Virus record (IMG/VR): IMGVR_UViG_2737471820_000002
Strand: one strand, 5' to 3'
Origin: a virus
Taxonomy: Duplodnaviria > Heunggongvirae > Uroviricota > Caudoviricetes
DNA: 43,472 nucleotides
Position 1 is the stretch's first letter; each line of letters opens with the position of its first letter. Shown piece after piece: positions 1,656 through 2,712 of the stretch. The notes below the pieces were generated by a model. The model had not been told where the DNA came from. It made no database searches and saw nothing but the letters and a program-made list of their open reading frames with translations. The position numbers and the translations under genes are program-made.

Positions 1656-1700
1656 CACGTTCTTGCATACGACGTGGCTACGGGTTTCGAGACCGACCCG
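1656..1700. repeat. Copy A of an imperfect direct repeat / hairpin element (core TTCTTGCATACGACG)
   Basis: agcacgttcttgcatacgacgtggctacggg sits inside an inverted repeat (cgtagc...gctacg); a second copy lies at 2670-2712. Confidence 0.4.
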
Positions 1701-1823
1701 ATCATCAAACGAAACATAAAATTAGCTCACCTTATGAGGAAAGGTATCTTTTTTCGCTATGTAAATTCAAAGGGTTAGCCTCATTTTCCCGATGGCTTTC
1801 TCAACACTACTAGTTGTGAGCCC

Positions 1824-2648
1824 TTGCAATGTTCATTAATATACGTCTCACAAATAATTCACAGATATTGCAAAATGGATATTACTGAGTTTCCTTCTGG
1901 AGTAATTGAACACCTTGGCTGGTATGTATACCGATTGATTGATCCTAGGGACGGAAGCACCTTCTATGTAGGGAAAGGCAAAGGTAACCGCGTATTTGCC
2001 CATATGCGCGGTGAAGTGGCAGCGGCTGATGATGACGAGTTACTGAGCAACAAGCTAAAGCAAATCAGAGAAATAAGATTAGCGGGACTTGAAGTTATCC
2101 ATGTCATCCATCGACATGGAATGACTGATGAAAAGACGGCGTACGAAGTTGAAGCAGCACTTATTGATGCCTACCCTGGGTTAACGAATATCATGAATGG
2201 TGCTGGCAGCAATGAATTCGGCGCCGCGCATGTCAAAGAGTTGATAGCAACATATCAACCCGAAACCATAACATTTCATCATAAAGCATTAATGATTTCC
2301 GTTAACAGAAGTGCAAAGGATTCAGAGCTTTATGATGCGGTTCGATTTAGCTGGCGCATTAATGTCTCTCGCGCCAGCCAAGCAGAAGTCATTCTTGCTA
2401 CTGTAAGGGGGATCGTTCGAGGGGTTTTCATTGCTGATAAATGGCTCAAATCAACACGTGAAAATTTCCCTACGATGAAATACTGGGACGAGGATCCGGA
2501 CTTTGAGGCAACACAAAGTTCTCGCTATGGTTTTGAAGGTCGAGAAGCCCCACCTGAAATAGCAAATCTTTATCTTGGAAAAAAAATACCAGATGAATTA
2601 AGAAAAAAAGGAGCTATGTCCCCGGTCCGTTACTCACCTAATTTTTGA
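1824..2648 (+). CDS. GIY-YIG domain nuclease family protein (possible start at 1875)
   Basis: [29 protein letters not shown] is a typical GIY-YIG motif; an alternative ATG at 1875 gives MDITEF...; no clear SD for either start. Confidence 0.6.
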
Positions 2649-2669
2649 GTCTTTAAGTGATAAGCATAA

Positions 2670-2712
2670 ACCGCAGCACGATCTTCTTGCATACGACGAG
2701 CCTGCGGTTTCA
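2670..2712. repeat. Copy B of the imperfect direct repeat / hairpin element
   Basis: gcagcacgatcttcttgcatacgacgagcctgcgg is flanked by inverted arms aaccgcag / ctgcggtt; it overlaps the stop codon of the invertase remnant. Confidence 0.4.

Follow-up and report, generated by a model that had tools for sequence, protein, structure and literature searches.

The window analysed here is a 43,472-nucleotide stretch of Caudoviricetes phage DNA (IMG/VR record IMGVR_UViG_2737471820_000002). Near its left end, a gene for a GIY-YIG nuclease is bracketed by two hairpin-forming repeats, A and B, and is followed on the opposite strand by the 3′ remnant of a Pin/Gin-type DNA invertase gene (Table 1). A sequence-only reading of the window had described two imperfect copies of an approximately 40-bp element, sharing a core and embedded in inverted arms, about 1 kb apart on either side of the GIY-YIG gene, with copy B overlapping the stop of the invertase remnant. 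This description proved accurate. The 15-mer TTCTTGCATACGACG is found exactly at both cores, on the + strand in each case and 1024 bp apart. Both copies can be folded as hairpins, that of copy B with a partly lost inner stem. The stop codon TGA of the invertase remnant (tca on the + strand) lies right next to copy B's 3′ arm and shares one base with the extended stem.

Table 1. Features of the locus in window coordinates
Feature	Position	Strand	Remarks
Conserved block of about 60 nt	1589..1649	+	GCAAAATCGATAACAGTTGGAAATCATTCAATACTCGCACTATCGGAAGTTCACCAGCCAG; precedes the hairpin in the phage element family (alignments)
Hairpin copy A	1650..1683	+	Stem 1650-1661 / 1671-1683, G1677 bulge; exact core 1660-1674
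Loop of copy A	1662-1670	+	CTTGCATAC
Junction	1685..1699		TTTCGAGACCGACCC; 15-nt remnant of the serU (tRNA-Ser(CGA)) anticodon stem and loop, and so of a serU-type phage attachment core
PD-T4-3 upstream region	1700..1874	+	Found together with the gene in every E. coli junction type but L117
PD-T4-3 / CMoRE, 257 aa	1875..2648	+	PADLOC, Pfam and PDB matches
Hairpin copy B	2668..2710	+	Outer stem AAACCGCAG 2668-2676 / CTGCGGTTT 2702-2710, core 2684-2698
Pin/Gin-type DNA invertase, 3′ remnant (...LTDEQWAQAGRLIASGVPRQKVAIIYDVGISTLYKKFPVGDK*)	2710..2932	-	Stop 2710-2712; N-terminal part lost or degenerate

Could the two copies resemble each other by chance? An exact 15-mer pair is by itself unremarkable in 43 kb, as a pattern search allowing up to three mismatches matched in 15 of 100 shuffles. 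Against chance stands the gapped local alignment of copy A with copy B over about 41 nt (CGTAGCACG---TTCTTGCATACGACGTGGCTACGGGTTTC / CGCAGCACGATCTTCTTGCATACGACGAGCCTGC-GGTTTC), which scores 40, compared with 12.4 ± 2.1 in 2000 shuffles (maximum 25), about 13 standard deviations higher. Copy B is also the top non-self match of copy A in the whole window. The probability left to a chance resemblance is vanishingly small. Because more than 100 related sequences with the same architecture are found in other phages, the similarity of A and B is, on sequence comparison, one of homology.

The bracketed ORF matches PD-T4-3 of PADLOC over its full length (E 2e-140, residues 1-256), has a Pfam LEM-3_GIY-YIG domain match, and matches PDB entries 9U75 (E 1e-172, residues 1-257) and 9U7U (E 1e-150). 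By these matches, the gene is that of the known anti-phage defence nuclease PD-T4-3/CMoRE. CMoRE is a GIY-YIG type IV restriction endonuclease that is specific for 5hmC/5ghmC DNA (PMC12923530). It is the sole ORF of note in the segment between the copies, and no recombinase is encoded there. The region upstream of the gene presumably holds its promoter; a consensus promoter scan that included this region found no promoter on the + strand.

The two repeats represent two naturally occurring hairpin alleles, either of which can be found alone in other phages. Copy A is the CGTAGC/GCTACG allele and is identical, up to ...GCTACGG, to the hairpin of two prophages which lack the PD-T4-3 gene (L007 and L008). 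The junction sequence has taken the place of its native T-tract, and only GTTTCGAG (three T in 8 nt) follows the stem. Copy B belongs to the CCGCAG/CTGCGG allele; three inserted nucleotides (ATC) weaken its inner stem, and its loop is large. Its right-arm variant AGCCTGCGG is also present in four single-copy phages (L089, L112, L011, and L123). Copy B begins 20 nt past the PD-T4-3 stop codon and is followed by TTTCATTTAT; after its stem, TTTCATTT has six T in 8 nt. On the invertase side, the PGAP annotation of the equivalent stretch is a frameshifted helix-turn-helix pseudogene in L002 and L008 and an intact pinE in L005 and L007.

A family of phage hairpins

Is the element bound to GIY-YIG genes? 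Related sequences were sampled by a core scan and a block scan of viral contigs and by a survey of 5,426 complete E. coli genomes. By its own account, the sequence-only reading would be refuted by copies that are widespread as ordinary terminators without any link to GIY-YIG genes, and this is what was found. Members of the hairpin family are present in lambda, HK97, Stx phages (1717), Salmonella phage FSL SP-016, e14-like prophages, and the Qin and Rac prophages of E. coli K-12. The element occurs in at least 3,114 of the 5,426 E. coli genomes and in up to eight places per genome. The hairpin is normally single-copy and sits where the 3′ end of a pin or tail-fibre gene meets its neighbour.

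The hairpin is usually preceded by the conserved block, which is also found in lambda (block and hairpin at 24,162-24,304), HK97, Stx phage 1717, FSL SP-016, and Qin, while the Rac copy is a hairpin only. In HK97, the element begins about 5 nt or less from the annotated sib site. In many phages, the block and the hairpin lie directly 3′ of a dinI/msgA-like gene on the same strand. RNAalifold predicted no conserved secondary structure for the block on the family alignment. The element is unannotated in all phage records inspected, and an Rfam 15 covariance scan (the release includes AgvB and AsxR) of window positions 1-6000 on both strands gave no match up to E = 5. In related genomes, PGAP annotates the equivalent of 1584-1664 (- strand) as a "capsid protein" pseudogene fragment.

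A coding explanation for the block and the hairpin was considered. Neither the - strand ORF starting from GTG 1658 nor the PGAP pseudogene is conserved, and this explanation was rejected because other family members carry stops or 1-3-nt indels in those frames. It was also considered whether the copies are crossover sites of a Din-family invertase (hix/gix/pix). The hixL site is a 26-bp imperfect dyad of two 12-bp half-sites, TTCTTGAAAACC AA GGTTTTTGATAA, and the sites of this family lie on either side of the invertible segment, 5′ of the invertase gene and not at its 3′ end. By inspection, the first six nucleotides TTCTTG agree, a second half-site is missing, and the position is wrong.

The family stem is 13 bp (13-14). 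Its 9-nt loop CUUGCAUAC stays conserved even between members whose stems differ greatly, although the search patterns account for part of this apparent invariance. In 109 distinct family sequences, 92% of the stem cells are paired and compensatory changes affect 11 of the 13 pairs. There are 109 compensatory cells, compared with 27 ± 10 in shuffles, and none of 500 shuffles reached the observed number; when the stem alignment was slid as a control, just 22-52% of the cells were paired. G·U cells outnumber A·C cells (194 vs 32), which indicates that the structure reads on the + strand. A T-tract past the stem (at least four T in 8 nt) is present on the + strand in 58 of the 109 sequences and on the - strand in none, so that a clear T-tract is missing from about half of the variants.

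For the Qin copy, published Term-seq data list "orphan" RNA 3′ ends at NC_000913.3 1,632,571 and 1,632,574 on the + strand (PMC7815308, Supplementary file 1), with a modest read count. These ends fall directly past GCGGTTTTT, that is, just after the U-tract of the Qin copy. The same table lists no 3′ end at the hairpin-only Rac copy. A simple terminator scanner reported no terminator at the window locus; its loop limit of 8 nt excludes a hairpin with a 9-nt loop, and thus the negative scan is uninformative.

These results support the view that the family hairpin is a conserved RNA stem-loop of the intrinsic-terminator type acting on the + strand. Of the possibilities raised from the sequence alone, a structured RNA or terminator module is supported by the covarying stem, the one-strand G·U cells and T-tracts, and the mapped RNA 3′ end in K-12. 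Copies A and B may themselves have terminator activity, and copy B is likely to be the terminator of PD-T4-3 and a barrier to antisense transcription into pin.

The element shares with intrinsic (Rho-independent) terminators at convergent junctions a GC-rich stem, followed in about half of the family by a T-tract on one strand. Likewise, copy B stands just past the end of an accessory gene, with a convergent gene on its other side, and a homologue has a 3′ end mapped in vivo. The long 13-14-bp stem, the conserved loop, the usual upstream block, and the many variants without a clear T-tract are unlike ordinary intrinsic terminators. Since about half of the variants lack a clear T-tract and so well conserved a loop is unusual for a terminator alone, termination may not be the whole function. 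The lambda sib/tI retroregulation hairpin is also a conserved RNA hairpin in a leftward transcript near a lambdoid attachment site. However, it differs in sequence and is a separate feature, and the hairpin family is not known to involve RNase III. Terminators flanking phage morons are a concept of Juhala et al. (2000), as cited in PMC4104026.

Junctions of the PD-T4-3 segment in E. coli

The PD-T4-3 gene is present in 838 of the 5,426 complete E. coli genomes, where its junctions are of types T, A, and H2. The empty site, a single hairpin with no PD-T4-3 gene, is present in 349 genomes; among them are L007, whose pinE is intact, and L008, which belongs to the same prophage lineage as the window. 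In type T (431 genomes), PD-T4-3 lies between a serU tRNA fragment and one hairpin. In type A (166 genomes), the gene has two hairpins as in the window. The one-hairpin form is the commonest setting of the gene (431 of about 823 genomes). PD-T4-3 homologues with 82-86% identity at eight loci in seven other enterobacterial species have the hairpin on neither side.

The left junction of the segment lies 3′ of the complete hairpin A, within the remnant of the tRNA-Ser anticodon loop and not in the repeated core. The remnant TTTCGAGACCGACCC aligns to K-12 serU, and the microhomology CTAC..GG(G/T)TTTC marks its fusion with the 3′ shoulder of hairpin A. Type T loci read ...GCCCCTACTCCGGTTTTCGAGACCGGTCCAATCATCAAACG at this junction, while the window reads ...GTGGCTACGGGTTTCGAGACCGACCCGATCATCAAACG. 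In type T, 344 bp are approximately 96-98% identical to the 3′ part of K-12 serU and its flank. In type T, A, and H2 loci, the homology to the window begins at 1665-1678 and continues through the PD-T4-3 upstream region.

Integrases with tRNA genes as targets commonly cross over at the anticodon stem-loop. The fusion of the copy A shoulder with the 15-nt serU remnant points to one crossover, either illegitimate or integrase-mediated. A nested-integration intermediate predicts a reciprocal junction, in which the serU 3′ copy is joined to the pin side, and a hairpin-adjacent attP predicts hairpin A joined to the 5′ part of serU. Each of these junctions was found in 0 of the 5,426 genomes and both proposals were rejected. 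Since neither predicted junction was found, the mechanism and the direction of the left crossover can be given only by inference.

The att-core sub-alleles GGTCCAATC and GACCCGATC each occur in both the tRNA-joined and the hairpin-joined forms, and thus two independent fusions or a later exchange would be needed. In some type T genomes, the serU fragment adjoins an AraC/integrase island instead of yodB, so the history of this end is more complex than simple serU integration.

Origin of the two-hairpin arrangement

The reading I regard as probable is that both repeats are copies of one conserved phage terminator-type hairpin, duplicated when a PD-T4-3-bearing prophage end recombined in. In lambdoid and e14-like phages, there is normally one such element, placed where leftward or accessory transcripts converge on pin or tail-fibre-assembly genes at their 3′ ends. 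It would act on the + strand, which is the sense of PD-T4-3 in the window and of dinI-like genes and int/sib in other phages. PD-T4-3/CMoRE is a defence moron whose commonest home is the extreme end of an e14-like prophage, from the serU-type att core to the hairpin. In that home, the hairpin would terminate PD-T4-3, and pin comes next.

A donor end of this kind (att core, PD-T4-3, hairpin B, pin, and so on) may have become linked to another prophage end at its hairpin tail (cargo, block, hairpin A). On the left, the crossover would have brought together hairpin A's 3′ shoulder, GCTACGGTTTC, and the att-core anticodon stem-loop, CTACTCCGGTTTTCGAG, either by microhomology-mediated illegitimate recombination or by integrase action at a secondary site. 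On the right side, homologous recombination anywhere from the hairpin through pin to the tail genes would suffice. Events would have run from type T to type A. In the present arrangement, copy B would end the PD-T4-3 transcripts and shield the pin remnant, and copy A would end transcripts arriving from the left, though its U-tract has been lost.

The sequence-only reading had also offered an insertion footprint of a mobile GIY-YIG cassette. This holds only loosely: filled and empty sites both exist, and the duplication would be a by-product of the arrival of PD-T4-3, but the hairpins are not the ends of a cassette. Such an autonomous cassette would insert site-specifically into the hairpin and carry a hairpin copy with it, by attC-type or homing-type mobility, and the copies would be attachment sites or target duplications. 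The exact 15-bp core at both ends and the abundant single-copy empty sites are what it predicts, and copy B looks hybrid in most filled sites (left arm CCGCAGC, right arm GCTACGG). However, this hybrid is already present in the one-hairpin loci, and the inserted segment begins on the left not with hairpin sequence but with a serU att core that has been cut short. Moreover, the gene most often has one hairpin only, and its homologues in other species have none. CMoRE is no homing endonuclease but a restriction enzyme that depends on DNA modification (PMC12923530), and the segment encodes no recombinase. An autonomous cassette is thus very unlikely and has been largely refuted.

The idea that the repeats form a recombination site pair has no support: the segment contains no recombinase, pin is a remnant, and neither of the predicted reciprocal junctions was found in the 5,426 genomes. 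A local tandem duplication of the hairpin, in which the copies diverged and the gene was inserted between them later, would fit direct repeats merely 1 kb apart. Yet A and B are distinct alleles with internally matching arms, each the sole copy in other phages. The serU att-core remnant is exactly at the A-side junction, and the one-hairpin, serU-adjacent form is the commoner one. I regard a tandem duplication as highly improbable. The arrangement resembles phage attL/attR duplications and secondary-site integration in that inserted DNA lies between direct repeats, the left junction is at the serU anticodon stem-loop, and empty sites exist. Unlike attL/attR, the repeated hairpin is not the att core, which is the 15-nt remnant on one side only, and the reciprocal junction was not found.

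Read this way, the two hairpins are a scar left by ordinary phage mosaicism through moron acquisition and do not bound a mobile gene cassette, which removes a false lead. PD-T4-3/CMoRE sits in the terminal accessory slot of an e14-like prophage, the slot of McrA in K-12 e14. The two differ in that McrA is an HNH nuclease and in that e14 has no hairpin element between pinE and mcrA. The junctions offer a concrete, datable example of a defence moron moving between prophage ends, a move that would take one crossover at the att-core/terminator microhomology plus homologous exchange. The empty, donor-like, and recombinant states all still segregate in E. coli.

The block and hairpin as a possible regulatory RNA

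A different reading concerns the function of the element. The block and hairpin A may be a trans-acting small RNA, or a 3′UTR-derived regulatory RNA, of temperate phages, with copy B as a borrowed terminator. The hairpin would be the terminator of this RNA, and the conserved loop and the block would be its functional parts. I consider this reading unlikely on balance. A conserved single-stranded block of about 60-70 nt followed by a covarying terminator, the orphan 3′ end in Qin, and the loop kept even where the stem has strongly diverged all agree with it, as does the lack of an Rfam match. So does the fact that many phages have it immediately past a dinI-like gene. An analogous case is DinR of Klebsiella, an sRNA that is cut from the dinI mRNA at its 3′ end (PMC10907235); the likeness to such a 3′UTR-derived sRNA, which shares the mRNA terminator, is one of layout. 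On the other hand, a consensus scan and inspection of the alignments showed no convincing conserved promoter. The Term-seq read count is modest, and part of the invariance comes from the search patterns. The conservation could also reflect frequent recombination at a shared module boundary.

Several known sources and relatives were considered. The 3′ UTR of the chromosomal dinI gene was rejected as a source, since K-12 dinI carries a plain terminator without the block and hairpin element. The EHEC/EPEC prophage sRNAs AgvB and AsxR sit at the PR′ moron site, and the Pas sRNAs are near Q and the lysis genes. The hairpin element differs in location from both groups, and the Rfam scan of positions 1-6000 gave no match.

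A bolder proposal combines two claims, namely that the block and hairpin (a unit of about 95 nt that copy A represents in full) are a very widespread unannotated prophage regulatory RNA with a function beyond termination, and that the ACGGTTTC shoulder mimics the tRNA-Ser anticodon stem-loop as a secondary att site. This combination is speculative and rather improbable. If it were true, serU-type phage ends with terminal defence genes would be captured into other prophages via the ACGGTTTC shoulder. The hairpin family, present in lambda and K-12 and missing from Rfam, marks a recurrent module boundary in temperate phages. This unannotated conserved RNA element is the more interesting by-product of the analysis and merits annotation.

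The repeat pair around the PD-T4-3/CMoRE gene

Inspection of the sequence had suggested two hairpin-forming repeats about 1 kb apart, bracketing a GIY-YIG gene, with the second one at the stop of an invertase remnant. As listed in the table, the exact 15-mer core TTCTTGCATACGACG occurs twice in the window on the same strand, and the starts of the left (copy A) and right (copy B) occurrences are 1024 bp apart. An exact 15-mer pair alone is not unusual within 43 kb. The copies align over about 41 nt with two gaps (3 nt and 1 nt), and the alignment score of 40 against 12.4 ± 2.1 (maximum 25) in shuffles (n = 2000) places their similarity above chance. 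Across the whole window, the best non-self match of copy A is copy B. Both copies fold into a hairpin, the ORF lies between them, and the stop codon of the Pin-type invertase remnant abuts the 3′ arm of copy B. Since the repeat, the hairpins, the bracketed ORF, and the invertase stop were all confirmed, the earlier description was accurate. The hairpin alleles are CGTAGC/GCTACG and CCGCAG/CTGCGG (copies A and B) with self-consistent arms in each, and A-type and B-type alleles are each the sole copy in other phages. Copy B begins 20 nt past the PD-T4-3 stop codon, an ATC insertion weakens its inner stem, and the sequence after it is TTTCATTTAT.

A 22-nt inverted repeat (82% complementary; TTTTGAGTCTTTAAGTGATAAG / CTTATCAATTAAAGTTTCATAA) also lies around the pin remnant; its left arm overlaps the stop of PD-T4-3, and its right arm lies shortly before the acyltransferase start. 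It could be due to chance, or be the scar of a rearrangement truncating pin.

Coordinates and forms of the element, its neighbours, and the left junctions of PD-T4-3
Feature	Sequence	Position (strand)	Remark
RelA/SpoT-domain gene	window	1-1275 (-)	424 aa
PGAP 'capsid protein', incomplete pseudogene in related genomes	window equivalent	1584-1664 (-)	L001 4305-4385; L005 4089-4169
Copy A, core	window	1660-1674 (+)	
PD-T4-3/CMoRE ORF	window	1875-2648	257 aa
22-nt inverted repeat	window	2643-2664 and 3076-3097	
Copy B, core	window	2684-2698 (+)	
Stop codon of pin remnant	window	2710-2712 (-)	
pin invertase remnant	window	2710-3121	C-terminal remnant only, several in-frame stops
Acyltransferase gene	window	3122-4213	Acyl_transf_3 family, 363 aa
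Element	lambda	24,162-24,304	between ea31 and ea47; full; loop CCTGCATAC, no T-tract
Element	HK97		between tail-fibre assembly gene and sib/attP region; one copy
Element	Stx2 phage 1717		one copy
Element	Salmonella phage FSL SP-016		one copy
Element	K-12 Qin	NC_000913.3 ~1,632,470-1,632,575 (+)	L217 1470-1575; full, left end of Qin
RNA 3′ ends	K-12 Qin	NC_000913.3 1,632,571 (+), 1,632,574 (+)	Term-seq 'orphan' ends
Element	K-12 Rac	NC_000913.3 ~1,434,727-1,434,765 (-)	hairpin only, without block, near Rac right end
serU 3′ fragment and flank, 344 bp	L002; L298	3679-4027; 4256-4599	type T
Left junction, type T	431 genomes		upstream region of PD-T4-3 directly abuts ...GTTGCCCCTACTCCGGTTTTCGAGACCGGTCC, the serU 3′ part up to the anticodon stem
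Left junction, type A (window's form)	166 genomes		block and complete hairpin A fused to truncated att core, ...GTGGCTACGG / GTTTCGAGACCGACCCGATCATCAAACG
Left junction, type H2			deletion derivative; only right half of hairpin kept, joined to TTTTCGAGACCGGTCC

A widespread stem-loop and an RNA 3′ end at its Qin copy

The search for the copies in other prophages revealed homologues in lambda, HK97, Stx2 phage 1717, FSL SP-016, Qin, and Rac; none of the inspected records of lambda, HK97, and K-12 annotates the element. Scanning IMG/VR with two patterns, the core and an independent motif in the upstream block, gave at least 120 loci each. Of 5,426 complete E. coli genomes, at least 3,114 have a detectable element, and a single genome can have it in up to 7-8 places. 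When 109 distinct sequences were aligned, the element was seen to consist of a conserved, apparently unstructured block of about 60-70 nt (...GTAAAATCGGTAACGGCTGGAAATCATTCAATACTCGCACTATCGAAAGTTCACCAGCC) and a 13-bp stem with a 9-nt loop. In the stem, 92% of cells are paired, 11 of the 13 pairs have changes on both sides, and the 109 compensatory cells compare with 27 ± 10 in column shuffles, none of 500 reaching the observed value. Sliding the 3′ partners by 1-3 columns reduced pairing to 22-52% of cells. G.U cells (194) outnumber A.C cells (32), and a T-rich tail, defined as 4 or more T in 8 nt, lies 3′ of the stem in 58 of the 109 sequences on the + strand and in none on the minus strand. 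Thus, the evidence for the stem is strong, and the structure is strand-specific. Among the 109 sequences, 64 have the loop CTTGCATAC and 17 have CCTGCATAC; the apparent invariance of loop and block is partly imposed by the two search patterns. The loop is also kept in variants retrieved by the block motif that have very different stems, such as CCGCAATCATGCT...GGTGTGGTTGCGG, and one clade has replaced the loop while keeping the stem and a strong T-tract.

What lies upstream on the same strand varies and includes a dinI/msgA-like gene with its 3′ end (...ETWESADEWFVH*), the HK97 sib site, and, in e14-like prophages, lambda-like sequence. Downstream, the flank differs widely between members and was a minus-strand gene 3′ end in the cases checked, most commonly that of pin with its TGA 3 nt from the stem; HK97 has a mere relic of the Pin C-terminus (...GDK*). 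Thus, the hairpin sits at a junction of convergent genes and at a mosaic boundary that recurs between phages.

A curated Term-seq table lists orphan RNA 3′ ends in Qin with the flanking sequence ...CAGCACGTTCTTGCATAAGGTGTGTCTGCGGTTTTTC (Adams et al. 2021, PMC7815308, Supplementary file 1). By my coordinates, the Qin end falls one base past the U5 tract of the hairpin, and its strand is the one that covariation predicts; for the Rac copy, which lacks the block, that table gives no 3′ end. Therefore, the element acts like a 3′ stem-loop of the intrinsic-terminator type, belonging to an unannotated transcript. The covarying stem, the + strand G.U pairs and T-tails, and the Qin end bear out the structured RNA or terminator module proposed in the sequence-only reading. 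Copy B is probably the natural terminator of PD-T4-3 and would shield the convergent pin remnant. Because copy A closes the conserved block, it would be the 3′ end of whatever orphan transcript this block encodes, and it would separate PD-T4-3 from upstream transcription. The original T-tract of copy A is gone at the junction, and this copy may be leaky.

The element is best classed as a terminator-type 3′ stem-loop, perhaps part of an sRNA. A regulatory function of the block and hairpin is rather unlikely; it is kept in view since the conserved loop and block exceed the needs of a terminator. No family in Rfam 15 matched the element, and no earlier description of the hairpin/block family was found. 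Identity with AgvB or AsxR and with Pas sRNAs was rejected by location, as the former two lie at the PR′ moron site and the latter near Q and the lysis genes; identity with the chromosomal dinI 3′ UTR was also rejected. On inspection, a coding explanation failed because candidate frames are broken by stops or 1-3-nt indels in other members. The PGAP 'capsid protein' call overlies the conserved non-coding block and a hairpin arm and looks like an annotation artefact spread from an ORF call over the element.

Left junctions and the origin of the duplication

Do the two hairpins represent the ends of a mobile cassette? Empty sites exist: a chimeric query (copy A left flank, core, and copy B right flank) was matched in one piece in 349 genomes. 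Among them, L007 has an intact pinE, and L008 belongs to the window's prophage lineage (pin remnant, acyltransferase, and same tail genes) but has one hairpin and lacks PD-T4-3. The PD-T4-3 gene was found in 838 genomes, and its left boundary takes three forms. In type T, the fragment of serU, the tRNA-Ser(CGA) gene, comes after 278 bp that flank serU downstream in K-12; together they make 344 bp, about 96-98% identical to K-12. At the junctions of two type T loci, L077 and L002, ARAGORN detected no intact tRNA. Such an arrangement is the mark of a prophage end that adjoins the displaced 3′ piece of the tRNA gene used for integration, and the order is PD-T4-3 as the terminal gene, one hairpin, and pin. 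The fusion point of hairpin and att core (the serU-type phage attachment core) is a microhomology of the hairpin 3′ shoulder CTACGGTTTC with tRNA CTACTCCGGTTTTC, exactly at the start of the anticodon stem-loop. Since both att-core sub-alleles were found tRNA-joined and hairpin-joined, the fusion occurred twice or exchange followed.

PD-T4-3 homologues of 82-86% identity are present in Yersinia aldovae, Y. vastinensis, Providencia heimbachae (two loci), and Citrobacter, Buttiauxella, Raoultella, and Klebsiella strains. At these loci, neither core-like or block-like sequence nor a tRNA gene adjoins PD-T4-3, and ARAGORN found only a tmRNA about 1.6 kb upstream in L220. Therefore, it is the E. coli phage context, not the gene, to which the hairpins belong. 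An att pair of a mobile GIY-YIG cassette is rejected by these hairpin-free homologues, by the predominance of type T, and by the tRNA origin of the left junction. Of the insertion footprint once proposed, the existence of empty and filled sites stands, while the cassette ends do not, given the type T majority and that left junction.

In the simplest route, one unequal crossover would have joined a type T end to the hairpin tail of an empty-site prophage. Equivalently, a type T phage would integrate at the hairpin tail as a secondary site, and homologous deletion would follow between the duplicated pin-tail modules. Both routes are inferred. The reciprocal junction was found in 0 of 5,426 genomes, and so was a hairpin and serU-5′ junction, which is expected with a hairpin next to the true attP. 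The duplication route is ordinary phage mosaicism with moron acquisition, and the PD-T4-3 gene was already known.

Some type T genomes have an AraC/integrase island on the far side of the serU fragment; in L002 and L298, the fragment and flank are next to an AraC-family regulator, IS fragments, and an integrase. The serU fragment of strain C7 is at the argW/intS locus and not beside yodB. These surroundings suggest tandem islands, or a phage end that carried host flank DNA.

The bracketed gene and its neighbours

The product is a full-length match to the PADLOC model PD-T4-3 (E 2e-140), has a Pfam LEM-3-like GIY-YIG domain, and matches the solved structure 9U75 over residues 1-257 (E 1e-172). 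9U75 is CMoRE of E. coli O157:H7, which is PD-T4-3 renamed, a type IV restriction endonuclease degrading phage DNA that carries 5hmC or 5ghmC (PMC12923530); its activity in a native host has been reported (bioRxiv 10.1101/2024.12.20.629700). Because of the surrounding genes (RelA/SpoT-domain, pin remnant, acyltransferase, tail-fibre assembly, tail-fibre, YmfQ, and baseplate J), PD-T4-3 is assigned to the end of a myovirus-type prophage resembling e14. K-12 e14 has McrA, likewise a type IV restriction enzyme, in the corresponding slot immediately outside pinE.

The adjoining gene at the prophage end encodes a RelA/SpoT nucleotidyltransferase domain (Pfam E 1e-13) and weakly matches the PADLOC candidate system PDC-S33 (E 2e-8); L005 and L007 have unrelated hypothetical genes in this slot. 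The gene may encode a toxic small-alarmone synthetase or a CapRel-like defence protein, in which case the prophage end would be a small defence island. The acyltransferase gene lies between the pin remnant and the tail-fibre assembly gene, where related prophages have an invertible tail-fibre segment; as a guess, it may modify O-antigen. Full-length PD-T4-3/CMoRE homologues of 55-60% amino acid identity (loci L226-L297) are common in metagenome-assembled genomes of Planctomycetota, Acidobacteriota, Chloroflexota, Actinomycetota, and other phyla, a distribution which is unusually broad and well conserved for a single-gene defence nuclease.
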